NCBI GenBank assembly: GCA_036268995.1
Contig: DATATB010000074.1
Span: 5,195-69,194 of the forward strand
Source: Pirellulales bacterium
GTDB taxonomy: Bacteria; Planctomycetota; Planctomycetia; Pirellulales; PNKZ01
Reading direction: 5' to 3'
DNA: 64,000 nucleotides
The notes beneath the pieces were generated by a model that had not been told where the DNA came from, did not search any database, and saw nothing but the letters and a program-made list of their open reading frames with translations. The first letter of the stretch is position 1. Every line of letters begins with the position of its first letter. Below are positions 9,200 through 64,000 of this stretch, in pieces. Made by a program: the position numbers and the translations under genes.

Positions 9200-9209
9200 C
9201 AGTTGTGCC

Positions 9210-9275
9210 GTAGCGGAATTCGAGAGAATTCCGGGGGCGCACGATTGCGTCCGGAAGTCTCACGACTTCCGCTAC
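9210..9275. repeat. 66-bp GTAG...CTAC double-hairpin element (family C, copy 1)
   Basis: GTAG-CGGAATTC-GAGA-GAATTCCG ... CGGAAGTC-TCAC-GACTTCCG-CTAC. These are two inverted REP-like units. A near-identical copy is at 10506-10571 and a half copy at 39260-39299. Confidence 0.85.
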
Positions 9276-9277
9276 GG

Positions 9278-9299
9278 CCCACGGACCGCAGTTCGTGGG
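9278..9299. repeat. CCCACGGACCGC(G/A)GT(C/T)CGTGGG palindrome (family B, degenerate copy)
   Basis: cccacggaccgcagttcgtggg. Perfect or near-perfect copies occur at 15280-15303 and 16407-16430. Confidence 0.7.
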
Positions 9300-10505: not shown

Positions 10506-10571
10506 GTAGCGGAATTCGTAAGAATTCCGAAATGTTGCCGAGAACGTCGGAAGTTTCACGACTTCCGCTAC
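10506..10571. repeat. 66-bp GTAG...CTAC double-hairpin element (family C, copy 2)
   Basis: GTAG-CGGAATTC-GTAA-GAATTCCG ... CGGAAGTT-TCAC-GACTTCCG-CTAC. Same length and orientation as copy 1. It sits 10 nt after the GT2 stop and 6 nt before the convergent PP2C stop. Confidence 0.85.
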
Positions 10572-25707: not shown

Positions 25708-25778
25708 GTAGGGTGGGCACTGCCCACCGTTTGCGCCCCGCATGAATCGGGGCCAATGGTGGGCAGTGCCCACCCTAC
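25708..25778. repeat. 71-bp GTAG...CTAC element with 21-bp perfect inverted arms (family E); likely bidirectional terminator
   Basis: GTAGGGTGGGCACTGCCCACC, a 29-nt spacer, then GGTGGGCAGTGCCCACCCTAC. Each arm is itself a small hairpin. It lies between convergent stops at 25687 and 25792. Confidence 0.85.
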
Positions 25779-39227: not shown

Positions 39228-39299
39228 GCATAAAGCCGCGACCGCTGGTCGCGAGCGGACGGAATTCTCACGAGACGGAATTCTCACGAATTCCGCTAC
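39228..39299. repeat. family D hairpin plus a half/duplicated family C unit
   Basis: cataaagccgcgaccgctggtcgcg (39228-39252), then cggaattctcacgaga-cggaattctcacgaattccgctac ending in CTAC (39260-39299). The loop read in GTAG orientation is GTGA. Confidence 0.75.
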
Positions 39300-46305: not shown

Positions 46306-49194
46306 GTGGGTTGGCCGTCCATGAATCATCCAGCGCTAGACGCGGACCAACCGTTCGGATGTCCGACGATGGCCGAACTCGAGCGGTTTGGCCTGGGAGA
46401 CTTGCCGGACGAAACGCTGGAGACGATTGCGCAGCACGTGGCCTTTTGCGCCGCTTGCGAACAGAGGCTTGGCCGCCTGTCGTCGTGCGACGACCGGGTC
46501 ACGATGGCGCTGCGTGCCCAGGTCGCGCCGCCGGCCTACGACGAAGCCGAGCTGGCGCGCGTCGTCCGCCAAATCGACGAGGTGTCGCGGACGCCCGCCC
46601 CCCCTGCCGACGCCCAAGCGCCGGACGCATTGACCTCATCGATCGTCATCCAACCGATGCCACGGGAGATCGAGCCGCTGGTGCGGTCCTTGCTGGCCAG
46701 CGGCTTGATTGGGGCGGACGAATTGACACGCTTGCGCTCAAATCTTCCGTCCGCCGATCCCGGGCGCGAAGCCGAACAACTGGCGCTCGAATTGGTACGT
46801 TGCGGCAAGCTCACGCGCTACCAGGCGGCCGTGCTGTATCAGCAGCGGCGCGATCCGCTGGTGCTGGGAGAGTATGTCGTGCTCGATCGGATCGGCGCGG
46901 GCGGAATGGGTCAGGTGTTCAAAGCCCGGCACGGCCGCATGGATCGGCTGGTGGCGATCAAGCTAGTCAGCCCGAGCCTGGTCGACGCGCCCGAAGCGGT
47001 CGATCGGTTTCAGCGCGAGGTTCGCGCGGTTGCCCGGCTCGAGCATGCGAACATCGTGACCGCGTTCGATGCCGGCGAACTGGATGGCACGCCGTTCCTG
47101 GTGATGCAGCTTGTCGACGGCAGCGACCTGTCGTCAGTGGTCAAGCAACGCGGCCCACTGGCCGTCCCCGTCGCGATCGAGTGCATCCGGCAGGCAGCCA
47201 AGGGGCTGGCCTACGCGCATCGCAAGGGGGTGATTCACCGCGATGTTAAGCCATCGAACATGCTGCTGGACGCCGACGGCACGATCAAAATCTTGGACCT
47301 GGGCCTGGCACGCTTCGAGGACGCCGGCGACGGGCTGACGTGTTCCGACCAGGTGATGGGCTCGATCGACTACATGAGTCCCGAGCAAGCGGTCGACTCC
47401 AGGCAAGCCGATGCCCGCTCGGATATCTACAGTCTGGGCTGCACGCTGTGGCATCTGCTCTCGGGGCGGAAGCTCTACCAGGCGGACACGCCGGTCACGC
47501 GCATCTTGCGCCATCGCGAAGCGCCGATCCCTTCGCTTTGTCAGGAGCGCGATGACGTGCCTGCCGCGCTGGACGGGGTCTTTCGCAAGCTGGTCGCCAA
47601 GCAACCGGCCGACCGCTATCAATCGATGGACGAAGTCGCCGCAGCGCTGGAGCAGTTGCAGGCCCAAATCCCCTCGCAAGCCGGCCAGCGCTCGAAGATA
47701 TTGGCCGAATTGCACGCAGCCGCCGCGATCGCTGGCGGAAATCGCCCTGTCGAGCCGACAGCCGAAGTGAAAGGGCCGCCGCCGGCGATTGAGGCCACCG
47801 CGAGCTATGCGGCTGCTGAGGTCGAAACGGATCCCACAAGTGAATGGGTTGTCCCTCGGCTCGCGGAACAAGGTAAAGACGAACGGGAGCCGGTCCCGCA
47901 CGGCGCTCGCCGGCACAGGCCGCGCGGCATGCTGATGGCCGGCGCATCGCTGCTCGGGCTGATCGCGGTTCTGGGCTTGATCGTAGCGCTGCGCTTGCGC
48001 CCGGCGGAGCATGCGGCCGACGTGCGCAACCTCGCGGCGAGCCGCGACCGCAACGCAGCGGCTCCATCGAGCGCGTCCCCGCAACTCGCCGCGCTGACGC
48101 CTGGCGTTCGCCCCTCGCCGATTGATCCGCCCGACCCATTGGTCGCTCCCTTCGACGCCCAGCAAGCCCACGCCGGTCAGGAGGCCTGGGCCAAATACTT
48201 GAACACGGGCGTCGAGCAGACCAACTCGATCGGCATGACGCTGGTGCTGATCCCGCCCGGTGAGTTCATGATGGGCAGCGCGCCCGAGCAGGCCGCCGGG
48301 GGCGCGAAACTGGCCGAGGACGCCAAACTAACACCCAGTGACTACCTTTGGACACGGTTGAAAGAGGAAGGGCCACAACATCGGGTCGCGATCACGAAAC
48401 CCTACTGGCTTGGCGCGACGGAAGTGACGATCGGCCAGTTCAAGAAGTTTGTCGAGGCCACCGGGTACGTGACCGAGGCCGAGCAGTTCGGGTTCGGCAA
48501 TTCAAGCGCGACGAACGTGGATGACAAGGTGACGCCGGAAATGAAGAAGATAACCTGGCGCGCACCAGGCTACCCCGTTACCGACGATTCCCCGGTAACG
48601 CAAATCACCTGGAACGATTGCATCGTGTTCTGTAATTGGTTGAGCGAACAAGAAAAGTTGCAGCCCTGTTATCAGCAAGATGCCAACGCCGGCTGGGAAC
48701 TGAATGTAGCAGGCACACTCCGTGTGCCGTCGCCACGCAGCGAGGAAGGTCGCGACACACGGAGTGTGCCTACTACATTCGAAGATTTCGGCTACCGGCT
48801 ACCGACCGAAGCCGAGTGGGAATACGCCTGCCGCGCCGGCACGACGACGCAGTTTTCATTCGGCGACGATCCGGCCATGCTCGACATCTATGGGTGGTTC
48901 AATAAGAACGCCGGTGAAAGTGCCCATCCCGTGGGCTCGAAGGCCGCAAATCCATTTGGCCTGTTTGACATGCACGGCAACGTCTACGAGTGGTGCCACG
49001 ATTTCTACGCGGCGGACTACTACTCGAAGTCCCCGCCACGCGACCCAGTCGGCCCGTCTTCTGGTAGGTATCGCGTGAGCCGTGGCGGTTTCTGGTGCGT
49101 CTATCCGGTTTGCTGCCGCTCGGCGTTTCGCTACCCCTACAAGCCCGCCCTCCGACACGAGAGCTTCGGTTTTCGGGTGCTGCGGGGGAAATAG
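46306..49194 (+). CDS. Ser/Thr protein kinase with an N-terminal Cys-motif region, a TM and a C-terminal FGE/SUMF1-type domain
   Basis: N-terminal HVAFCAACEQRL. Kinase motifs GAGGMGQVFKA, HRDVKPSNMLL, DLGLAR and SPEQ. A TM (LMAGASLLGLIAVLGLIVAL). FGE-sulfatase domain (GMTLVLIPPGEFMMGS, RLPTEAEWEYACRAGT, GNVYEWCHD, RGGFW). Start at GTG 46306 or ATG 46321. Confidence 0.9.
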   Translation: MGWPSMNHPALDADQPFGCPTMAELERFGLGDLPDETLETIAQHVAFCAACEQRLGRLSSCDDRVTMALRAQVAPPAYDEAELARVVRQIDEVSRTPAPPADAQAPDALTSSIVIQPMPREIEPLVRSLLASGLIGADELTRLRSNLPSADPGREAEQLALELVRCGKLTRYQAAVLYQQRRDPLVLGEYVVLDRIGAGGMGQVFKARHGRMDRLVAIKLVSPSLVDAPEAVDRFQREVRAVARLEHANIVTAFDAGELDGTPFLVMQLVDGSDLSSVVKQRGPLAVPVAIECIRQAAKGLAYAHRKGVIHRDVKPSNMLLDADGTIKILDLGLARFEDAGDGLTCSDQVMGSIDYMSPEQAVDSRQADARSDIYSLGCTLWHLLSGRKLYQADTPVTRILRHREAPIPSLCQERDDVPAALDGVFRKLVAKQPADRYQSMDEVAAALEQLQAQIPSQAGQRSKILAELHAAAAIAGGNRPVEPTAEVKGPPPAIEATASYAAAEVETDPTSEWVVPRLAEQGKDEREPVPHGARRHRPRGMLMAGASLLGLIAVLGLIVALRLRPAEHAADVRNLAASRDRNAAAPSSASPQLAALTPGVRPSPIDPPDPLVAPFDAQQAHAGQEAWAKYLNTGVEQTNSIGMTLVLIPPGEFMMGSAPEQAAGGAKLAEDAKLTPSDYLWTRLKEEGPQHRVAITKPYWLGATEVTIGQFKKFVEATGYVTEAEQFGFGNSSATNVDDKVTPEMKKITWRAPGYPVTDDSPVTQITWNDCIVFCNWLSEQEKLQPCYQQDANAGWELNVAGTLRVPSPRSEEGRDTRSVPTTFEDFGYRLPTEAEWEYACRAGTTTQFSFGDDPAMLDIYGWFNKNAGESAHPVGSKAANPFGLFDMHGNVYEWCHDFYAADYYSKSPPRDPVGPSSGRYRVSRGGFWCVYPVCCRSAFRYPYKPALRHESFGFRVLRGK
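48706..48776. repeat. 71-bp GTAG...CTAC double-hairpin element embedded in frame inside the kinase-FGE gene
   Basis: GTAGCAGGCACACTCCGTGTG, a 29-nt spacer, then CACACGGAGTGTGCCTACTAC. The arms are 21 bp with 1 mismatch. This is the same 21/29/21 geometry as the intergenic element at 25708-25778. It translates as ..VAGTLRVPSPRSEEGRDTRSVPTT.. Confidence 0.85.
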
Positions 49195-53450: not shown

Positions 53451-53809
53451 TTCATGAGCTCCTGCCGGAAACTTTGCCCCCCGGGAGCCTTATATCGAAT
53501 GCATTCACTTACGCTCAATCCCAGTCTTTTACTGGCCGTTGCCATGCATGTTTTCGCATCATCGGCCACTGCGCCCCGTCGCTAGCAACCCCGCCCTGCT
53601 CTGCCAGCCGATTCGTCACCGTGCCGGATGGCGTTCGCAGGCCACACGACGTTTGGGGGGGCATTGGTCCGGAGTTCTACTCATTGAAAACTCGGGGCCG
53701 ATCGGCCAAGCTTAAGCCGCGCGAACAAGCGGTAGACGCGGCGAAGGGGGTTTCGAGGCCTCCGGCCGGCTGGTCGCGGTCGAGTGGAACCCATATTTAA
53801 AGGTCCGGC

Positions 53810-55102
53810 ATGCGCAAAACACGCGATCTCGAACATCCGCGCGACGCGATTTTACGCTGTATCGAGCGGATTTACCGCTACCGCATGACGACCACCTCCG
53901 GTGGCAACCTGTCGGTCCGCGAGGCCAGCGGCGATATCTGGATCACGCCGGCCCGCATCGACAAGGGCTCGCTTACCCGCGACCACATCGTCTGCTGCCG
54001 GTCCGACGGCACGCAGGGCGGCGGGCATTGCCCTTCGTCCGAGCTGCCGTTTCATCGGGCCATTTACCAGGCCCGGCCCGATATCCGCGGCATTGTCCAT
54101 GCCCACCCGGTCGGGCTGGTGGCCTTCAGCATTGCCGGCCTCGTGCCCGACACCAGCGTGCTGTATCAGGCGTTCGACACCTGCGGCCGCGTGAGTTTTG
54201 CCCGCTATGCGCTGCCCGGCAGCGAGGCGCTCGGGCGGAATATTGCCGAAGCGTTCGCGGCCGGCGCGGATTGCGTGGTGCTGGAGAATCATGGCGTGGT
54301 CACGGCCGGCACGAGCCTGCAAGCGGCGTTCGAGCGGTTCGAGACGTTGGAGTTCACCGCGGCCACGCTGCTCGAAGCTCGGCAGTTGGGCACGGCGCGC
54401 ACGCTGGCGGCCGAGGAACTGGAGATCAAGCACCGTGCGCCGGCCGGCCATGCCCTGCTGCGTGCCGGCGAAGCCACGAGCCACGAGAAGGAGCTGCGGC
54501 GCGAGCTGAGCGAGTTTGTGCGCCGCGCATATCGTCAGCGGTTGATGATCAGCACCGAAGGCGCCTTTTCCGCACGGTTAGAAGATGATGCGTTTTTGAT
54601 TACGCCACACGCGGTCGATCGCGATCGGCTCGAGCCGGGCGAGGTCGTGCTGGTGCGGGCCGGCGCGGCTGAAGAAGGACGCATGGCCAGCAACAACGCC
54701 CGCGTGCATCGGGCGATTTACGCCCGGCATCCGGAAATTTCGTCGATCATCAATGCTTATCCGGTTAGCGCCACGGCTTTCAGCCTCACCGGCGCGGCGC
54801 TCGACGCGCGCACGATTCCAGAAAGTTATTTGTTACTGCGCGAGATTCAGCGGCTGCCACGGGCAGTGCAATACTCGGATCCGGATGCGGTGGGTGCCGC
54901 CGCGTCGCTTGCCAATCCGATCACGATCTTGGAAAACGACGGCGTGCAGATCTGCGGCACCAGCGTGCTGGACGCCTTCGATCGGCTGGAAGTGCTGGAG
55001 TCGACGGCCCGCGCGATCATTCGTGCCCGTTCGCTGGGAGACCTCGTGCCGCTGTCGGCCGAGGCGATTGCCGAGCTGCGCAAGGCCTTCCAAGTTGATT
55101 AA
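53810..55102 (+). CDS. tandem class II aldolase/adducin-domain protein (second copy lacks the metal-ligand His residues)
   Basis: Domain 1: TTSGGNLSVRE...HRAIYQARPDIRGIVHAHP. Domain 2: STEGAFSARL...HRAIYARHPEISSIINAYP, where the HxH pair is replaced by NxY. Confidence 0.8.
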   Translation: MRKTRDLEHPRDAILRCIERIYRYRMTTTSGGNLSVREASGDIWITPARIDKGSLTRDHIVCCRSDGTQGGGHCPSSELPFHRAIYQARPDIRGIVHAHPVGLVAFSIAGLVPDTSVLYQAFDTCGRVSFARYALPGSEALGRNIAEAFAAGADCVVLENHGVVTAGTSLQAAFERFETLEFTAATLLEARQLGTARTLAAEELEIKHRAPAGHALLRAGEATSHEKELRRELSEFVRRAYRQRLMISTEGAFSARLEDDAFLITPHAVDRDRLEPGEVVLVRAGAAEEGRMASNNARVHRAIYARHPEISSIINAYPVSATAFSLTGAALDARTIPESYLLLREIQRLPRAVQYSDPDAVGAAASLANPITILENDGVQICGTSVLDAFDRLEVLESTARAIIRARSLGDLVPLSAEAIAELRKAFQVD

Positions 55103-55187
55103 GACGGTTGACTAACGCACACGATTCATTCAGAACAAGGCGGCGCGGGGCCTGGGGACGGCGGAGCAAAAAAGGAGTTTGAGCGCT

Positions 55188-56207
55188 ATGCAATTGGGAA
55201 TGATCGGCCTGGGACGAATGGGTTCGAACATGGTTCGCCGGCTGATGAAAGCCGGGCACGAATGCGTGGTCTACGACGTGCACGCCGACGCGGTGGCCCA
55301 ATTGGTGAAAGAGGGCGCGGTCGGCGCCAAGTCGCTCGATGAACTGGTGCAAAAACTGCGCAAGCAGCGGGCCATCTGGCTGATGGTGCCGGCCGCCGTG
55401 GTCGATCGCAGCATTGCCGACCTGCAATCGCGGCTCGAGCGCGACGATATTCTGATCGACGGCGGCAATTCGTATTACATCGACGACATTCGCCGCGCCG
55501 GCGAACTGCGCGAAAAAGGGATTCATTACGTCGACGTGGGCACCAGCGGCGGCGTGTGGGGTTTGGAGCGCGGCTATTGCGAGATGATCGGCGGCGAAGC
55601 GGCGATCGTGAAGCATTTGGATCCGATCTTTGCGACGCTGGCGCCATCAATGGATGCCGCCCCGCGCACGCCCGGCCGCGAGGGCATCGGCGGCACGGCC
55701 GAGAAGGGCTATCTGCACTGCGGACCCAATGGGGCCGGCCATTTTGTCAAAATGGTGCATAACGGTATCGAGTACGGCGTGATGGCCGCGTATGCCGAGG
55801 GGCTGAACATCCTGCGGCATGCCAACGTCGGCCACCAGCAGCAGGAGAGCGATGCGGAGACCACGCCGCTGCGCGATCCCGAGCTGTATCAGTACGACCT
55901 GAACCTGCGCGACATTACCGAAGTCTGGCGTCGCGGCAGCGTCATCGCTTCGTGGCTGCTGGATCTGACCGCCGCCTCGCTGGTCAAGGACGAGGAACTG
56001 TCCGATTTCACCGGGCGCGTGTCCGACTCGGGCGAAGGCCGCTGGACGATCAAGGCCGCCATCGACGAGGCCGTGCCCGCGCCAGTGCTGACGGCCGCCT
56101 TGTTCGAGCGGTTTTCCAGCCGCGGCGAGGCCGATTACGGGGATCGTCTGTTGTCGGCCATGCGATTGCAGTTCGGGGGCCACATGGAGAAGAAGGCCGC
56201 TAAATAA
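55188..56207 (+). CDS. gnd: 6-phosphogluconate dehydrogenase, decarboxylating, short (GndA/YqeC-like) form
   Basis: [19 protein letters not shown] Rossmann motif, [15 protein letters not shown] and [22 protein letters not shown] lies 9 nt before ATG 55188; the track begins at TTG 55179. Confidence 0.85.
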
Positions 56208-56255
56208 AGCGTTGAAACTTTCCCGCGGGGCCTGGAAAACTCAAGGAGTGGTGGC

Positions 56256-57635
56256 GTGAATGCTCAAAAATCCGACGCCCTGGTTTTCTTCGGAGCCACC
56301 GGCGATCTGGCCTATAAAAAGATTTTCCCAGCCCTGCAATCGATGGCGCGCCGCGGGCATCTGGACGTGCCGGTGATCGGCGTGGCCAAAGCCGGCTGGA
56401 ATCTGGATAAGCTGCGCGAGCGGGCGCGAGACAGCCTGGAAAAGCACGGCGGCGTCGACGAGCACGCCTTCGCAACGCTCTGCGACCGCATGCGCTACGT
56501 CGACGGCGATTACCAGGACGCCGAAACCTTCAAAAGGCTGCGCACCGCGTTGGGCCCCGCCAAGCACCCGGCCCATTACCTGGCGATTCCGCCCAACTTG
56601 TTTCCCGTCGTGGTCGACCAGCTTGGCAAATCCGGCTGCGCCCAGGGCGCGCGGGTCATCGTGGAAAAACCCTTCGGCCGCGACCTGGCCAGCGCACAAA
56701 AACTGAATCAGACGCTACTGAGCAATTTCGACGAGGCGTCGATCTTTCGCATCGACCACTACCTGGGCAAGGACCCGGTGCAGAACCTGCTCTTTTTTCG
56801 CTTCGCCAATTCGTTTCTCGAGCCGGTCTGGAACCGCAACCACGTCTCGAGCATGCAGATTACGATGGCCGAGAGTTTCGGCGTCGAGGGGCGCGGGGCG
56901 TTTTACGAAGAGGCCGGCACCATTCGCGACGTCGTCGAAAATCACCTACTGCAAATCCTCGCCAACTTGACGATGGAACCGCCGGTGGGCACCGACAGCG
57001 AGTCGATCCGCGACGAAAAGACCAAGATCCTCAAGGCCATTCCGCCGTTGGGACCCGGCTCGGTGGTCCGCGGGCAGTTCAAGGGCTATCGCGACGAAAA
57101 GGGCGTGGCGCCCGAATCGCAGGTCGAGACCTTCGCGGCGATGCGCATGGAAATTCATTCGTGGCGCTGGCAAGGCGTGCCGTTTTCCATTCGGGCCGGC
57201 AAGAAGCTGCCGGTCACCTGCACCGAGGTGATCGTCGAGTTCCGCTCGCCGCCGCCCTTGTTTGTCCGCACGCGACACCCCAACTATCTGCGCTTCCGCG
57301 TGAGTCCCGACGTGACCATCGGCCTGGCGGCGCTGACCAAGCAGCCCGGCGAAGAAATGATCGGCAACCAGGTCGAACTGCTGGCTACGCACCATTCTCG
57401 CACGGGCGAAATGGATGCCTACGAGCGGCTGTTGGGCGACGCCATGCACGGCGATCCCACGCTGTTTGCTCGCGAAGACTATGTCGAGGCGGCCTGGAAG
57501 ATCGTCGATCCCATCCTGAACAACAAGACGCCGCTGTTTTTCTACGAGCCCAATACGTGGGGCCCGACCGAAGTCGAGAGCCGGATTGTGCCGCCCCGTG
57601 GCTGGCACGATCCGCAAGTCCCCGAGCCGGTCTAG
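56256..57635 (+). CDS. zwf: glucose-6-phosphate 1-dehydrogenase
   Basis: [32 protein letters not shown] and [11 protein letters not shown] start with AAGGAG upstream. Confidence 0.95.
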
Positions 57636-57645
57636 ACTGAATTCT

Positions 57646-57702
57646 GGGAGGGCGAGGCTCCTGCCGAGCCGCATGATGGCTCGGCAGGAGCCTCGCCCTC
57701 CC
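57646..57702. repeat. 25-bp perfect-stem hairpin (7-nt loop) between zwf and rpiA
   Basis: GGGAGGGCGAGGCTCCTGCCGAGCC-GCATGAT-GGCTCGGCAGGAGCCTCGCCCTCCC. The right side continues as GCTAC (CTAC end at 57704-57707). No U-run follows. Confidence 0.85.
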
Positions 57703-57729
57703 GCTACGTGAAAACCCTTGTTATGAGGA

Positions 57730-58428
57730 TTGCGCATGGGTCCATCGTCCTCCGGGCTGCGGGCGATCGCCGCACGTGCCTTGGAGTACGTGACCGACGG
57801 AGACGTCGTGGGCTTGGGCACCGGTCATGCGGCCACCGCGTTCATCGAGGCCCTGGGCCAGCGCGTGGCTGATGGCTTGGGCATTCGCGGCATCGCCACC
57901 AGCGAGGCTACGGCCGAACTGGCCGGCCGCTTGGGCATTCGGCTGACGAATTTCGCCGAAGCGGACACAATCGACGTCGACGTGGACGGCGCCGACGAAG
58001 TCGATCCGCAGTTGAATCTCATCAAGGGCTATGGCGCGGCGCTACTGCGTGAGAAGGTCGTGGCTTCGGCCAGCCGACGCGTGGTGATCCTCGTCGGTCC
58101 AGAAAAGCTCGTGCCCGTATTGGGCTCGCGCGGCAAGCTGCCGGTGGAGGTCGTGCCCTTCGGCCTCGCCTGGTGTGCGCGCCAACTGGAGCGGCTCGGC
58201 CTTTCCTCCGAGCCGCGCAGGACCGCCGACGGCGGTTTGCTGCTGACGGACAACGGCAATGCGATCCTCGATTGCCGCGTGGGCCCCATCGACGATCCGG
58301 CGCAACTCGACCAGCAATTGCGTGCCATTCCCGGCGTCGCCGGCACCGGGTTGTTCATCGCCACGGCCCACACCGTGCTCGTCGATCGTGGCGACCACGT
58401 GGAAGCCCGCCACCGGAGCGGCGCATGA
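57730..58428 (+). CDS. rpiA: ribose-5-phosphate isomerase A
   Basis: VVGLGTGHAATAFIEAL, DGADEVDPQLNLIKGYGAALLREK. Start at TTG 57730 or ATG 57736. The stop overlaps the ackA start (ATGA). Confidence 0.9.
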   Translation: MRMGPSSSGLRAIAARALEYVTDGDVVGLGTGHAATAFIEALGQRVADGLGIRGIATSEATAELAGRLGIRLTNFAEADTIDVDVDGADEVDPQLNLIKGYGAALLREKVVASASRRVVILVGPEKLVPVLGSRGKLPVEVVPFGLAWCARQLERLGLSSEPRRTADGGLLLTDNGNAILDCRVGPIDDPAQLDQQLRAIPGVAGTGLFIATAHTVLVDRGDHVEARHRSGA

Positions 58429-59633
58429 GCGGTTCCGTGCTCTCCGTCAACGGCGGCTCCTCCAGCATCAAGTTCGCCCTCTATAAAAGGGGTCAGAACT
58501 ATTTTTCGCAGAAAAATAGTTCTGACCCCTTTATTTCGGGGCAGATCGAGCGGATCGGGTCGGCGGAGGCGCGGCTGCGGGTCGGGGACGAGCGGCGGGC
58601 GGTCGCGGCGGCCGATCATGCGCAGGCGGTGCTGCGGTTGGTCGAGTGGTTTCAAGAGCACGGCGGGCTGGACGACGTGGCGGCCATCGGGCATCGCATC
58701 GTGCACGGCGGACAGCACTACGTGCAGCCGGCGCGGGTCACGCCCGAAATGCTGGCAGAGCTCAAGCGGCTGGTGCCGATCGATCCGACGCACCTGCCCG
58801 GCGAGATCGCGCTCATCGAGGCCTTCGAGCGCCACCTGCCCAAGGTGCCGCAAGTGGCCTGTTTCGACACGGCCTTTCATCGCCAACTGCCGCGCGTGGC
58901 CTGGCTGCTGCCGCTTCCCCGCCGTTACGCGGCGCAGGGCGTGCGGCGCTACGGCTTTCACGGCTTGTCGTTCACCTATCTGATGGCCGAGCTCGCGCGT
59001 TTGGATCCGGCGGCGGCTGGCGGCCGCGTGGTGCTGGCCCATCTCGGGTCGGGAGCGAGCATGGCGGCCGTGCGCGGCGGCCAGCCGATCGACACCACCA
59101 TGTCGTTCACGCCGGCCGCCGGCCTGGTGATGGGCACGCGCACCGGCGACATCGATGCTGGCGTGCTCACGTACTTGATGCGGACCGAGGGGCTGAACGC
59201 CGATCAAATCGACGACCTGGTGAACCATCAATCCGGCCTGCTGGGCATGTCCGAGACCAGCGCCGACATGCGCGATTTGCAAGCACGCCGCCACGAAGAT
59301 CCACGGGCCGACGACGCAGTGACCGGCTTTTGCTATTCGGCCCGCAAATGGATCGGAGCACTGACCGCGATCCTGGGCGGAATCGAGACTCTGGTGTTCA
59401 GCGGCGGCATCGGCGAGAACGCGCCGGCTGTCCGAGCCGAAATCTGCCAGGGGCTCGAACATCTCGGCATGCGCTTGGACGCCGGGCGCAATGAACAGAC
59501 CGAAGCGGTGATTTCGTCCGGCGAGAGCCCCTGCTGCGTGCGGGTTATCCACACCAATGAGGAAGCGGTGATCGTGGAACAGGTGCGGCAATTGATCGCC
59601 GGCCCATCGGTAAAGAAAGGCAGCACGGCATGA
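58425..59633 (+). CDS. ackA: acetate kinase
   Basis: [46 protein letters not shown] and GGIGEN. ATG 58425 overlaps the rpiA stop, and the ackA stop overlaps the xfp start. Confidence 0.9.
58485..58531. repeat. AT-rich 21-bp perfect inverted repeat (5-nt loop) embedded in frame in ackA
   Basis: AAAGGGGTCAGAACTATTTTT-CGCAG-AAAAATAGTTCTGACCCCTTT. About one-third GC within a GC-rich gene. It encodes ..[19 protein letters not shown].. in the variable loop between the SSSIKF motif and IERIG. Confidence 0.9.
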
Positions 59634-61993
59634 CGGCCAACGCGATCCCCGACGAACTGTTGCAAAAAATCGACGCGTATTGGCGGGCCGCCAACTACCT
59701 GTCCGTGGGACAGATCTACCTGTACGACAATCCGCTGCTCAAAGCGCCGCTGGCGCCGGCCCACATCAAGCCGCGTCTGCTGGGTCATTGGGGCACCACG
59801 CCGGGCCAGAATTTTATTTACGCCCATCTCAACCGCGTGATCAAGCAGTATGACTTGAACATGATCTACATCTCCGGCCCGGGACACGGCGGGCCGGCTC
59901 TAGTGGCCAACACGTATCTCGAAGGCACGTACAGCGAGGTCTATCCGAACATTTCGCAGGACGAAGCGGGGCTCCAGCGGCTGTTCAAGCAGTTCTCGTT
60001 TCCCGGCGGAATTCCCAGCCACGTGGCGCCCGAAACGCCCGGCTCGATCCACGAAGGCGGCGAGTTGGGCTACAGCCTCAGCCATGCCTACGGCGCCGTG
60101 TTCGACAATCCCGATCTGCTCGTGGCGTGCGTCATTGGCGACGGCGAGGCCGAGACCGGGCCGCTGGCCACGAGCTGGCACGGCAACAAATTTTTGAATC
60201 CCGCGACTGACGGCGCGGTGCTGCCGATCCTGCACTTGAACGGCTACAAAATCGCCAATCCCGCCGTACTGGCGCGCGTGGGGCACGAAGAGTTGGGGCT
60301 GCTGTTGCGCGGCTACGGCTACGAGCCCTGCTTCGTGGCCGGCGACGATCCGGCGCGCATGCACCGCCTGATGGCCGAGACGCTCGACAAAGTCGTGGGC
60401 CAGATTTCGCGCATCCAGCGCCAAGCCCGGACCGAGGGTTTTCAGCATCGCCCGCGCTGGCCGATGATCGTGCTCGATTCGCCCAAGGGCTGGACCGGAC
60501 CGAAGGTGGTCGACGGCTTGCCGGTCGAAGGCACGTTCCGCGCGCACCAGGTGCCGCTATCGCAGCCGCGCGACAATCCGCAGCACCTGGCGATGCTCGA
60601 TGCCTGGATGCGCAGCTACCGGCCCGAGGAGCTGTTCGATGCCGACGGTCGTTTGCGCGCCGAGCTGGCCGAGCTGGCGCCACGCGGGCCGCGGCGGATG
60701 GGCGCCAATCCCAATGCCAACGGCGGCCTGCTGCTCAAAGCGTTGCGGCTGCCCGATTTTCGAGACTTTGCCGTCGACGTGCCCAGCCCCGGCCAGGTGG
60801 ATGCGGCCGACACCGCCGTGTTGGGCACGTATCTGCGCGACGTGCTCAAGGTCAACGACGACCGCAAGAACTTTCGCATCTTCGGGCCCGACGAAACGAT
60901 GAGCAACCGCTTGTCGGCCGTCTTCGAAACGACCGAGCGGCAATGGACGGCCGAAACCATTCCCATCGACGATCACCTGGCGCCGATCGGCCGTGTGGTC
61001 GAAATGCTCAGCGAACATCAGTGCGAGGGCTGGCTCGAAGGCTACCTGCTGACCGGCCGCCACGGGCTGTTCAATTCGTACGAGGCATTCATCCACATCA
61101 TCGATTCGATGTTCAACCAGCACGCCAAGTGGCTGAAGGTCACGCGGCAGATTTCGTGGCGGCGGCCGATCGCTTCGCTGAATATCCTGCTGGCTTCGCA
61201 CGTCTGGCGGCAGGACCACAACGGCTTCACGCACCAGGATCCCGGCTTTATCGACCTGGTGGCCAACAAGAAGGCCGAGATCATTCGCGTGTATTTGCCG
61301 CCCGATGCCAACACGCTGCTGTCGGTCATGGCCCATTGCCTGGCCAGCCAGAATTACGTGAACGTGATCGTGGCCGGCAAGCACCCGGCGCCGCAATGGC
61401 TGTCGATGGACGCGGCCGTGAAGCATTGCACCGGGGGCATCGGCATTTGGGATTGGGCCAGCAACGACCAGGGCTCGGACCCCGACCTGGTAATGGCGGC
61501 CGCCGGCGACGTGCCCACGCTCGAATGTCTGGCTGCCATCTCGATTCTGCGCGAGAAGTTGCCCACGCTGAAAATCCGGATGATCAACGTCGTCGACCTG
61601 ATGCGGCTCGAGCCGACGAGCGAACATCCGCACGGCATGAGCGACCGCGACTTCGACACGCTGTTCACGCGCGACAAGCCGGTGATCTTCGCCTATCACG
61701 GCTATCCTTGGCTAATCCACCGGCTGACGTACCGCCGCACCAACCATCGCAACATCCACGTTCGCGGTTACAAGGAAGAGGGCACGATCACCACGCCGTT
61801 CGACATGGCGGTGCTCAACGACCTGGACCGCTTTCATCTCGTGGCCGACGCCGTCGATCGCCTGCCGCAACTGGGCGCGAGTGCCGCGTATATTAAGCAG
61901 TGGTGCCGCGATAAATTGATCGAGCATCGCCAGTACATTTATCAATACGGAGAGGACATGCCCGAGATTCTGAATTGGCGTTGGAAGTCGTAA
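59630..61993 (+). CDS. xfp: xylulose-5-phosphate/fructose-6-phosphate phosphoketolase
   Basis: [33 protein letters not shown] and GDGEAETGP; 787 aa. Typical XFP family text. Confidence 0.95.
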
Positions 61994-61994
61994 G

Positions 61995-62591
61995 ATGAAT
62001 CCATCACTGCCGCATATTTACTTGGCCCGGCATGGCGAAACGGCCTGGAGCGCGTCGGGCCAGCACACGAGCGTCACCGATTTGCCGCTCACCGAGCGTG
62101 GCGAGCGCAGCGCCGCGCTGCTGGTTGGGCGGCTGGCGGGCGTTCGCTTCGACCTGGTGCTGTGCAGTCCCCTGCTGCGGGCTCGGCGCACCTGCCAATT
62201 GGCGGGATTCAGTGATCGGGCCGAAATCGAGCCGCGGCTGGCCGAGTGGAACTACGGCCAGTATGAGGGGCTCACCACGCCCGAAATTCAAGGCCAGCGA
62301 CCCGATTGGGAATTATTTCGCGACGGCTGTCCGGCGGGCGAGTCGATCGTGCAAGTGGCCCAACGGGCCGAAGGCGTCATCCAGCGGCTGCGGTCGGCGG
62401 GTGGCAATGGGCTCGTTTTTTCCAGCGGGCATATTCTGCGCGTGCTGGCGGCCCGCTGGCTGGGACTCGATGCGGCCTGTGGCCGGCTGCTTTTTCTTTC
62501 CACCGCCAGCTTGAGTATCTTGGGCTACGACCATAATCTGTCGGAGCCGATCGTCCACTTGTGGAACGACGCTCGGCCGGCGAATGTGTGA
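61995..62591 (+). CDS. histidine phosphatase (phosphoglycerate mutase) superfamily protein
   Basis: LARHGETAWS (RHG catalytic motif), LTERGERSA and SSGHILRVL. It starts 1 nt after the xfp stop. Confidence 0.85.
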   Translation: MNPSLPHIYLARHGETAWSASGQHTSVTDLPLTERGERSAALLVGRLAGVRFDLVLCSPLLRARRTCQLAGFSDRAEIEPRLAEWNYGQYEGLTTPEIQGQRPDWELFRDGCPAGESIVQVAQRAEGVIQRLRSAGGNGLVFSSGHILRVLAARWLGLDAACGRLLFLSTASLSILGYDHNLSEPIVHLWNDARPANV

Positions 62592-62608
62592 AAATCGAAA
62601 CAAAGGAA

Positions 62609-62726
62609 TTTGAACAGGAGAACGCGAAGGACGCTAAGAAGGAAGAAAAAAGGACGAGCTTATGGACGATTCCGCGCGTCGCGTGAGCCACCTTTACCTT
62701 TGCGTGCTTTGCGATCTTCTGTTCAA
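62609..62726. repeat. diverged copy of the GAACAGAAGATCGCAAAG inverted-repeat family
   Basis: The left arm tttgaacaggagaacgcgaaggacgctaag (62609-62638) pairs with ctttgcgtgctttgcgatcttctgttcaaa (62697-62726) with about 5 mismatches. It lies between the phosphatase stop and the pgm start. Confidence 0.65.
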
Positions 62727-62760
62727 ACTCTTTGTCTAAGAGCAACTGAAAAGGAACGTG

Positions 62761-64000
62761 ATGGCGATTCATCCCTTGGCGGGTCAGCCGGCGCCGGCTT
62801 CGGTCCTCGTGGATCTGGCTCAGCTCGACCGGGCGTATCATGAGACCCGGCCCGACACGTCCGACCCGACCAAGCTGGTCAGCTTCGGCACCAGCGGACA
62901 TCGCGGCAGCTCGCTCGACGGCACGCTGACCGAAGCGCACATCCTGTCCATCACGCAAGCGATTTGCGATTACCGCCGACAGCAAGGCATTGACGGCCCG
63001 CTGTACATGGGCAAGGACACGCACGCGCTATCCGGACCCGCGCAGCGCACGGCGCTCGAGGTGCTGGCCGCCAACGAGGTGAGCACGATCATCGAGCACG
63101 ACGAGGGCGTGACGCCCACGCCGGTCATCTCGCGAGCCATTCTCGTTCACAATCGCGGCCGCACCGCCGGGCTGGCCGACGGCATCATTATCACCCCCTC
63201 GCACAATCCGCCCGAAGACGGCGGCTTCAAATATAATCCCACCGGTGGCGGCCCGGCCGATACGGATGTTACCAGTTGGATTCAAGACCGCGCCAACACG
63301 CTACTCAAGGCCGGCAATACCGATGTCAAACGCGTGCCGTACGAGCGAGCCTTGCGGGCCGTCACGACCAAGGCCGAGGACCTGGCGACGCCCTACGTGC
63401 GTGACCTGGTCAATGTCGTCGACATCGAGGCCATTCGCTCTTCGGGATTGCGGATGGCGGCCGATCCGCTGGGCGGGGCGAGCGTCCGTTATTGGGAACT
63501 TATCCAGGCCACATACCGGCTCGACATCAAGGTGGTCAACACGCACGTCGATCCCACGTTCTCGTTCATGACGCTCGACCACGACGGCAAAATCCGCATG
63601 GACTGCTCGAGTCCCTATGCGATGGCCCGGCTGGTCGGGTTGAAGGACCAATATCAGCTAGCTTTCGCCAACGATCCGGACGCGGACCGGCATGGGATTG
63701 TCACGCCGACTTCGGGGCTGATGAATCCCAACCATTACCTGGCCGTGGCGATCGACTATCTGCTCGCGCATCGGCCCGGTTGGCCAGCGCAGGCTGCCGT
63801 GGGCAAGACGCTGGTCAGCAGTAGCACCATCGACCGCGTGGTGGCCGCCCTGGGGCGAAAGGTGTCGGAAGTGCCGGTCGGGTTCAAATGGTTCGCTCCG
63901 GGATTGTTCGACGGCTCGATCTGCTTCGGCGGCGAAGAGAGTGCCGGAGCCAGCTTTTTGCGCCGCGACGGCACGGTTTGGACCACGGACAAAGACGGCA
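62761..64000 (+). CDS. pgm: phosphoglucomutase, alpha-D-glucose-phosphate-specific (3' end outside the window)
   Basis: My own translation from ATG 62761: [22 protein letters not shown]...[10 protein letters not shown]...[19 protein letters not shown] (active-site Ser loop). The frame is open to the window end, which is why it is absent from the closed-ORF track. Confidence 0.9.

Follow-up and report, generated by a model that had tools for sequence, protein, structure and literature searches.

RAYT-like genes that lie between long terminal inverted repeats (TIRs) have been described as TIRtrons, and the transposases that they encode as TIRYTs (Di Nocera et al., 2013, PMC3733652); the latter correspond to subclass 2.1 of the TnpA_REP transposases (Quentin et al., 2018, PMC6006769). 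Many TIRtron TIRs carry the motif GGGGWSAS, and some TIRs constitute moderately abundant repeat families (PMC3733652); the same motif of TIRYT-associated TIRs is found in PMC6006769. Residence in frame inside genes has been reported for repetitive extragenic palindromes (REPs) and for Rickettsia palindromic elements (RPEs), the latter being summarised in PMC3733652, and not for TIR repeats (PMC3733652; PMC6006769). Here we analysed a stretch of 64,000 nucleotides (nt) from a Pirellulales bacterium (assembly GCA_036268995.1, contig DATATB010000074.1), hereafter the window, in which the acetate/propionate kinase gene ackA contains a perfect palindrome. We propose that this palindrome is most probably a non-autonomous, minimal member of a TIRtron family, made of two nearly abutted TIRs, that was mobilised in trans and is now translated as a tolerated loop of the kinase.

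The initial annotation had placed the palindrome at positions 58485-58531 with 21-bp arms and a 5-nt loop. The palindrome exists and the repeat is perfect, but its true position is one base rightward (58486-58532), and its arms are really 22 nt long, 100% complementary and separated by a 3-nt loop, the closing C:G pair having been overlooked. With one extra A at its left end, the unit is 48 nt long. Its GC content (0.38) contrasts with those of the remainder of ackA (0.67) and of the window (0.64), as the initial annotation had remarked of the surrounding GC-rich gene, and its translation in frame between SSSIKFALY and GQIERIG had been read correctly. The RNA hairpin folds with a free energy (dG) of -33.7 kcal/mol, against -9.3 +/- 2.3 for shuffled sequences (z = -10.5), and no match to the arm with up to 3 mismatches was found in 100 dinucleotide-preserving shuffles of the window. 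The identical gene with the same palindrome is present in JGI samples 3300036818 and 3300037258, and a 96%-identical gene, again with the palindrome, in sample 3300036795. An assembly artefact is thus very unlikely, since three independent JGI assemblies carry the same structure.

The arm sequence turned out to be widely dispersed. Exact matches to its 19-mer GGGGTCAGAACTATTTTTC numbered at least 120 stretches in metagenome contigs. The one-genome-per-species GTDB collection (596 Gb) contained 75 of them, whereas about 4 would be expected for a random 19-mer. Of the 34 matching metagenome-assembled genomes (MAGs), 30 were planctomycetal (Pirellulales, Thermoguttaceae, Bythopirellula or otherwise so labelled). 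The number of exact arms per genome ranged from 1 to about 15, some MAGs carried the 19-mer on about ten contigs, and paired units numbered 9 in CSMAG_2310 and 11 in MEGAHIT-3.47. Dispersal is established for the family across MAGs; the source organism itself was seen over the 64 kb and their flanks only. Carriage by phages was ruled out, with no match to the arm among 2.9 million viral contigs. A few matches came from MAGs that bear the labels Gammaproteobacteria, Arenicellales, Chthoniobacterales and Omnitrophota (L188, L193, L196, and L200); L196 and L200 are complete paired units, and these occurrences could be due to mis-binning or to real spread beyond planctomycetes.

We then took a census of the family in 1.1 Mb of fetched loci, in which arms were sought at up to 4 mismatches. 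It comprised 135 unique units of the form arm(+)-spacer-arm(-) and 96 unpaired arms. The TIR consensus RAAAAAGGGGTCAGAACTATTTTTC extends one or two A/T past the 22-nt arms (TIRs of 22-25 nt), and conservation ends abruptly on both sides, the flanks and the spacer being unconserved. Spacer length lay between -1 and 99 nt and had its modes at 31-37, 11, and 5 nt, for a unit size of 47-140 nt across the family; the window copy, with its 3-nt spacer, belongs to a minimal spacer class together with L146, L191, L062, L043, and L079. A flanking direct repeat was absent in 127 of 134 units and did not exceed 2 nt in the rest, indicating that there is no target-site duplication, on which ground a DDE-type miniature inverted-repeat transposable element was excluded. 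The same or nearly the same spacers recurred at unrelated sites of one MAG (L147/L189, L158/L181a/L181b, L162/L171, and L186/L192), so that the copied entity is the whole arm-spacer-arm unit. At two orthologous loci with flanks about 90% identical, L102:5632-5704 and L195:3561-3633, the arms are identical and the 29-nt spacer of L102 is the reverse complement of that of L195 at 26 of 29 positions; this unit has flipped in place between its own inverted repeats. Partial arm cores (AAAGGGGTCA...) often stood in tandem just outside a full unit (L148:3017-3160, L192:1132-1270, L024, L085, L087, L095, and L110) and some units were nested or doubled, which suggests repeated insertion beside or into existing copies.

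The arms also flank a transposase gene. At 16 loci, an arm(+) is followed after about 26 nt by an open reading frame (ORF) of about 235 amino acids (aa; about 705 nt) and then by an arm(-), the TAG stop of the ORF lying inside the right arm (GAA AAA TAG, giving ...EK*). The product matches the Pfam family Y1_Tnp (PF01797, IS200-like) with an E value of 2.6e-16. The motifs NHFHLLL (HUH), HVWQGRF (WQ), and RYIEANP were found in all 16 transposases, whose length of about 235 aa compares with 121 positions for the Pfam core. In the ackA palindrome, GGGGTCAG at 58489-58496 and its complement at 58522-58529 are an exact fit to GGGGWSAS. The family thus resembles TIRtrons in having a RAYT-like Y1/HUH gene bracketed by long TIRs and not by GTAG REPs, in the presence of GGGGWSAS in the TIR, in a transposase that combines HUH, WQ, and YIxxNP motifs with a C-terminal extension, and in TIRs that, in other MAGs, are dispersed in moderate abundance as singles, dimers, and clusters too. 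It differs from them by its distribution in Pirellulales and Thermoguttaceae and by the sequence of its TIR, by the very variable spacers of its inverted dimers, and by the residence of about one fifth of its evaluable copies in frame in genes. The distribution, the TIR sequence and the in-gene habit in planctomycetes were all absent from the literature searched, and the family itself appears to be undescribed.

The autonomous form would then be a TIRtron in which the same TIRs surround the RAYT-like TIRYT gene. Its Y1/HUH transposase would mobilise the unit in trans in the form of a single-stranded DNA hairpin, the route described for IS200/IS605 and REP/RAYT systems. The ackA copy would have entered the gene either by such transposition or by recombination with an allele already bearing the element; redundant codons of the native loop would subsequently have been deleted, and the element would simply be translated as a tolerated surface loop.

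Residence inside genes is a recurrent feature of the family. The coding frame beside each unit was determined from the GC3-GC2 periodicity of stop-free 210-nt flanks, which made 107 units evaluable. In 23 of them, both sides were coding in the same frame and this frame was open through the element, against 8 with same-strand coding that shifted frame or ran into a stop; the other evaluable units were intergenic or located at gene ends. Pfam searches on ten of the spanning ORFs recovered domains either side of or across the element, the hosts being UvrA, IspG, a DEAD-box helicase, PrmC, TsaD, PBP2, LeuRS, an Eco57I-type methylase, an FtsX permease, and PheT. No stop occurs in any of the three frames of the left arm (KRGQNYF, KGVRTIF, and KGSELFF) or in two of those of the right arm (KNSSDPF and KIVLTPF), whose third frame contains TAG and TGA. 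The marked excess of frame-preserving, stop-free copies (23 versus 8) is expected if the element is translated and not if it is spliced out or bypassed, and hence argues for translation. One could imagine that the element is instead removed from the mRNA, or bypassed by ribosomes, in the manner of an intron or of the T4 gene 60 gap, given such a very stable hairpin in essential genes and a conceivable excision by RNase III and a ligase. This is very improbable: nothing but translation of the element calls for a frame constraint, neutrality would by itself place one third of copies in the same frame, and the ackA copy consists of exactly 16 sense codons.

Orthologous copies at the same site, over flanks 75-90% identical, were recovered in IspG (L037, L160, L075, and L058), PheT (L084 and L123), and PBP2 (L146 and L191). 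Their arms differ at 0-5 positions and their spacers are unalignable. Among 120 IspG orthologues chosen without use of the arm sequence, about 11 bear the element or one arm, with near-invariant arm peptides and differing spacers. Loops with the element exceed empty loops by about 16 aa, the length of two arms, with a resemblance at some residues, and the native 11-aa loop (RLLxPxExxxG) is absent in all element-bearing IspG. Capture of host loop DNA as the origin of the spacer was rejected, four IspG spacers aligning with two empty loops no better than shuffles did (semi-global alignment, p 0.09-0.76). In other lineages, the IspG loop holds insertions from two further, apparently palindromic repeat families, one in P0251, P0258, P0300, P0302, and P0308 (RVRETH...THPT) and one in P0351 and P0353 (...ENGTVPF...); this surface loop is a hot spot for palindromic elements.

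In AckA, the segment from FAL[YF] to G-x-[IVL]-ERIG is 11 aa long in 58 of the 63 aligned sequences, 18 aa in the window and in P0001, and 16 aa in P0002 (76% identity). A loop about 15 aa shorter in orthologues had been anticipated; these are indeed shorter and devoid of the element, but the difference is 7 aa. Just "IS" persists of the native loop, so that the element has taken the place of about nine native codons, most of the 11-aa loop, and not to be a plain 16-aa addition. In an AlphaFold2 model built from 63 sequences (mean predicted local distance difference test score, pLDDT, of 85), residues 4-10, 15-20, and 37-42 are strands and residues 21-36 are coil, with an average pLDDT of 69 for block 21-30; as modelled, the element would form the beta2-beta3 hairpin loop of the kinase. 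All the residues invariant in the family are present, and the closest PDB match is 7fj7 (E 5e-86). The dN/dS ratio is 0.14 in comparison with the 96%-identical orthologue, and ackA is therefore under purifying selection and in use. The element itself shows no difference from this orthologue for 55 differences out of 1209 nt in the whole gene; this absence is not significant, about 2.2 substitutions being expected in 48 nt (P about 0.11).

The loop of P0002 contains the 9-mer CAGAAAAAT at the homologous position, spanning the junction between spacer and right arm (local score 18, shuffle p about 0.003). The remainder of this loop resembles the element at random level and has no fold, and we dropped the idea that the P0002 loop (L002) is a clear decayed copy, the common part being the 9-mer alone. 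It may still, on thin evidence, be a decayed remnant, which would put the insertion before that split. A search with the N-terminal 152 aa of AckA recovered fragments of at most 55% identity and no intermediates. Alternatively, the 16-aa loop of P0002 could represent the ancestral seed of a local origin, in which no mobile element took part and the palindrome arose when an intrastrand template switch (quasi-palindrome correction) altered an AckA loop that was extended beforehand. An in-place event cannot yield a 22-mer equal to the family consensus, hundreds of unrelated loci have identical arms, which also enclose a transposase gene, and the likeness of the P0002 loop ends with the 9-mer; we consider this hardly conceivable scenario to be effectively refuted. 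In another genome (L006; GCA_036272995.1, DATAXO010000810.1), whose AckA (P0003) is 78% identical, the contig begins exactly at RIG after the loop; such a start would fit an assembly break at a palindrome there too, the loop itself being off the contig.

The suggestion made at the outset, that a mobile or dispersed palindromic element had landed in a coding region and was tolerated there, is borne out by the presence of the arm at hundreds of loci in about 30 planctomycete MAGs, by its position around a Y1 transposase gene and the recurrence of whole units at unrelated sites within a genome, and by the many copies in frame inside genes and the AckA orthologues without the element. Several observations nevertheless weigh against an origin by TIRtron transposition. 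A tblastn search for a TIRYT gene in the 64-kb window returned nothing better than E about 3, and no second copy of the element was found in the window and its flanks, the ackA copy standing alone. A loop only 7 aa longer than that of the orthologues requires at least one extra deletion or replacement event. The loci were fetched via an exact 19-mer, so that arm conservation in the sample is partly built in. The biochemistry of TIRYTs is not known to have been demonstrated, and such work is called for in PMC3733652 and PMC6006769. Finally, IspG alleles with the element are scattered among empty ones in a neighbour-joining tree (unbootstrapped, with the loop left out), and L075 (with the element) and L202 (empty) have almost identical flanks. 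This IspG pattern is not explained by plain transposition and suggests allele exchange or recurrent replacement.

The same data raise the question of whether ackA received its copy by homologous recombination (patch conversion) with an element-bearing allele of a related strain, and not by transposition in this lineage. Such an event would agree with the coexistence of element-bearing and empty IspG alleles with near-identical flanks, with the shared junctions and related spacers of IspG bearing alleles that are yet scattered in the tree, and with the lack of a transposase gene or further copy near ackA in the window. Only two element-bearing AckA lineages and one possible remnant are known, however, and the scatter comes from a tree without bootstraps; we regard recombination as fairly unlikely for ackA. 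In both ackA and IspG, the replacement of the loop points to later deletion of redundant codons, to alleles exchanged through recombination, or to some mechanism of replacement that is still to be understood.

Going further than a TIRtron-derived element that is merely tolerated, one may envisage a persistent partnership between TIRYT and hairpin, with the surface loops of housekeeping proteins as the specific sites that it takes over. The pointers in this direction are the near-intact arms of the IspG, PheT, and PBP2 copies, at 75-90% flank identity, with spacers scrambled or inverted in place; the native loops of ackA and IspG, replaced and not extended; and the alternation of bearing and empty alleles among close relatives. 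We consider such a partnership improbable. If true, it would fit active maintenance or homing-like loop replacement; alternatively, under the same reading, the arms could have a host-level role, for example in translation-coupled attenuation or as a protein-binding site.

The family can be further situated with respect to other palindromic systems. A canonical REP was excluded, the arm AAAGGGGTCAGAACTATTTTTC being not self-complementary and having no 5' GT[AG]G tag. As in REPIN-RAYT systems, two inverted units make up a hairpin that is copied together as a non-autonomous unit, the repeats lie on both sides of a single Y1 transposase gene, and persistence in the lineage is long-term; the planctomycete arm differs by being no palindrome, by the missing tag and by a low copy number per genome. 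REPIN-RAYT systems go back, reportedly, to work by Bertels and Rainey in 2011, and canonical REPINs are said to be overwhelmingly extragenic. With RPEs, the family shares the condition of palindromic selfish DNA located in frame in housekeeping genes, translated as an extra surface peptide and tolerated; the two are unrelated in sequence and differ in size and in host clade. The RPEs of Rickettsia, attributed to Ogata and colleagues in 2000, are reportedly about 100-150 bp long and CGTC-tagged, and we know of no transposase dedicated to them. The family is therefore REPIN-like in mobility and RPE-like in living inside genes. Elements of the IS200/IS605 type and their palindrome-associated miniatures likewise rely on Y1/HUH chemistry on single-stranded hairpins, produce no target-site duplication and have short non-autonomous derivatives; their ends, in contrast, are asymmetric subterminal hairpins and not a long perfect TIR pair, and the planctomycete transposase belongs to the RAYT-like branch. 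Background on IS200/IS605 can be found in PMC6006769. A known Rfam RNA family was excluded as well: in an Rfam scan no family was reached, the matches being generic long-hairpin ones to microRNA precursor models, with 20-29 bits against gathering scores of 70-95.

Table 1. Coordinates in the window of the palindromic element, its parts, and the neighbouring genes.
Feature	Position	Strand	Remarks
Whole miniature element	58485..58532	+	48 nt = exactly 16 codons, K21-F36; left TIR, 3-nt spacer, right TIR
Left TIR AAAGGGGTCAGAACTATTTTTC	58486..58507	+	Contains GGGGTCAG, fitting GGGGWSAS; read in ackA as (K)RGQNYFS
Spacer/loop GCA	58508..58510	+	Minimal form of the family spacer
Right TIR GAAAAATAGTTCTGACCCCTTT	58511..58532	+	Read in ackA as (Q)KNSSDPF; third frame holds TAG and TGA
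U-rich tail TTTATTTCGG after the stem	58530..58539	+	Pattern match; candidate terminator part
ackA (acetate/propionate kinase), host gene	58425..59633	+	Intact, 402 aa; PF00871, E 1e-110
rpiA, upstream operon gene	57730..58428	+	Stop overlaps ackA start (ATGA)
xfp (phosphoketolase)	59630..61993	+	Start overlaps ackA stop

The element is housed in a compact sugar-phosphate gene cluster (positions ~53800-64000, and L003) with the order class II aldolase-family protein, gnd, zwf, rpiA, ackA, xfp, histidine phosphatase, pgm, ROK kinase, pgi, DUF2090, and rpe, in which stop and start codons overlap at several junctions. The stem (up to 22 bp, 20 being counted by the scan) followed by TTATTTCGGG is the sole terminator-like site in 57400-59800, and judging from its sequence the hairpin matches the anatomy of an intrinsic terminator. 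The ackA start sits 61 nt ahead of the palindrome, and the hairpin should not hinder initiation because it begins past the AUG at a distance outside the footprint of the initiating ribosome. It could slow elongation, be a target of RNase III, or terminate transcription when ribosomes lag or translation is uncoupled, and xfp would be hit by any polarity that it causes.

This location leads to the possibility that the hairpin, whatever its origin, has been co-opted for regulation: close to the ackA start, it would act in translation-coupled attenuation or be a site for RNase III, and so tune ackA-xfp expression. Besides the singularity of the terminator-like site and its dG of -33.7 kcal/mol, its place early in the second gene of the overlapping rpiA-ackA-xfp operon would suit such a role, as would the near-intact arms of orthologous in-gene copies whose spacers have diverged completely. 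Yet many unrelated genes, and intergenic DNA too, harbour the same element, which makes an ackA-specific role unnecessary; the hairpin starts after the initiation footprint, and the lack of differences from the 96%-identical orthologue is not significant. We thus consider a regulatory co-option doubtful, and quite unlikely, in comparison with a tolerated TIRtron-family element.

The presence of palindromic selfish DNA translated in essential genes, in the style of Rickettsia, would extend to free-living planctomycetes with large genomes, and the planctomycete case can be linked with an identifiable Y1/HUH (TIRYT) transposase, for which the Rickettsia elements have no known counterpart. It could provide a tractable system for the entry and persistence of hairpin elements in coding DNA, for the tolerance or replacement of protein loops, and for the effects of mRNA hairpins on operon expression. 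The conserved 25-mer is a handy marker for the clade, and annotated proteins can acquire spurious "novel" loop insertions through the arms, which can also cause breaks in assemblies.

Other palindromes are present in the window. A GTAG-tagged palindromic repeat (GTAGCGGAATTC...) was found at 9204-9281, 10506-10571, and 39288-39299, with 5 occurrences in the window versus 0.3 expected, twice as inverted pairs; by its sequence, it resembles a canonical REP family that resides alongside the TIR family. The intergenic gap between zwf and rpiA contains a perfect 25-nt inverted repeat (GGGAGGGCGAGGCTCCTGCCGAGCC and its complement, 57646-57702) with 7 nt between the arms. This repeat is another dispersed palindrome family, because a 20-mer of GGGAGGGCGAGGCTCCTGCCGAGCC recurs in two unrelated Pirellulales loci (L175 and L178). 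Long imperfect palindromes were also observed at 25708-25778 (GTAGGGTGGGCACTGCCCACC..., 30-nt arms, 90%) and 48702-48780 (GAATGTAGCAGGCACACTCCGTGTGCC..., 28-nt arms, 93%).

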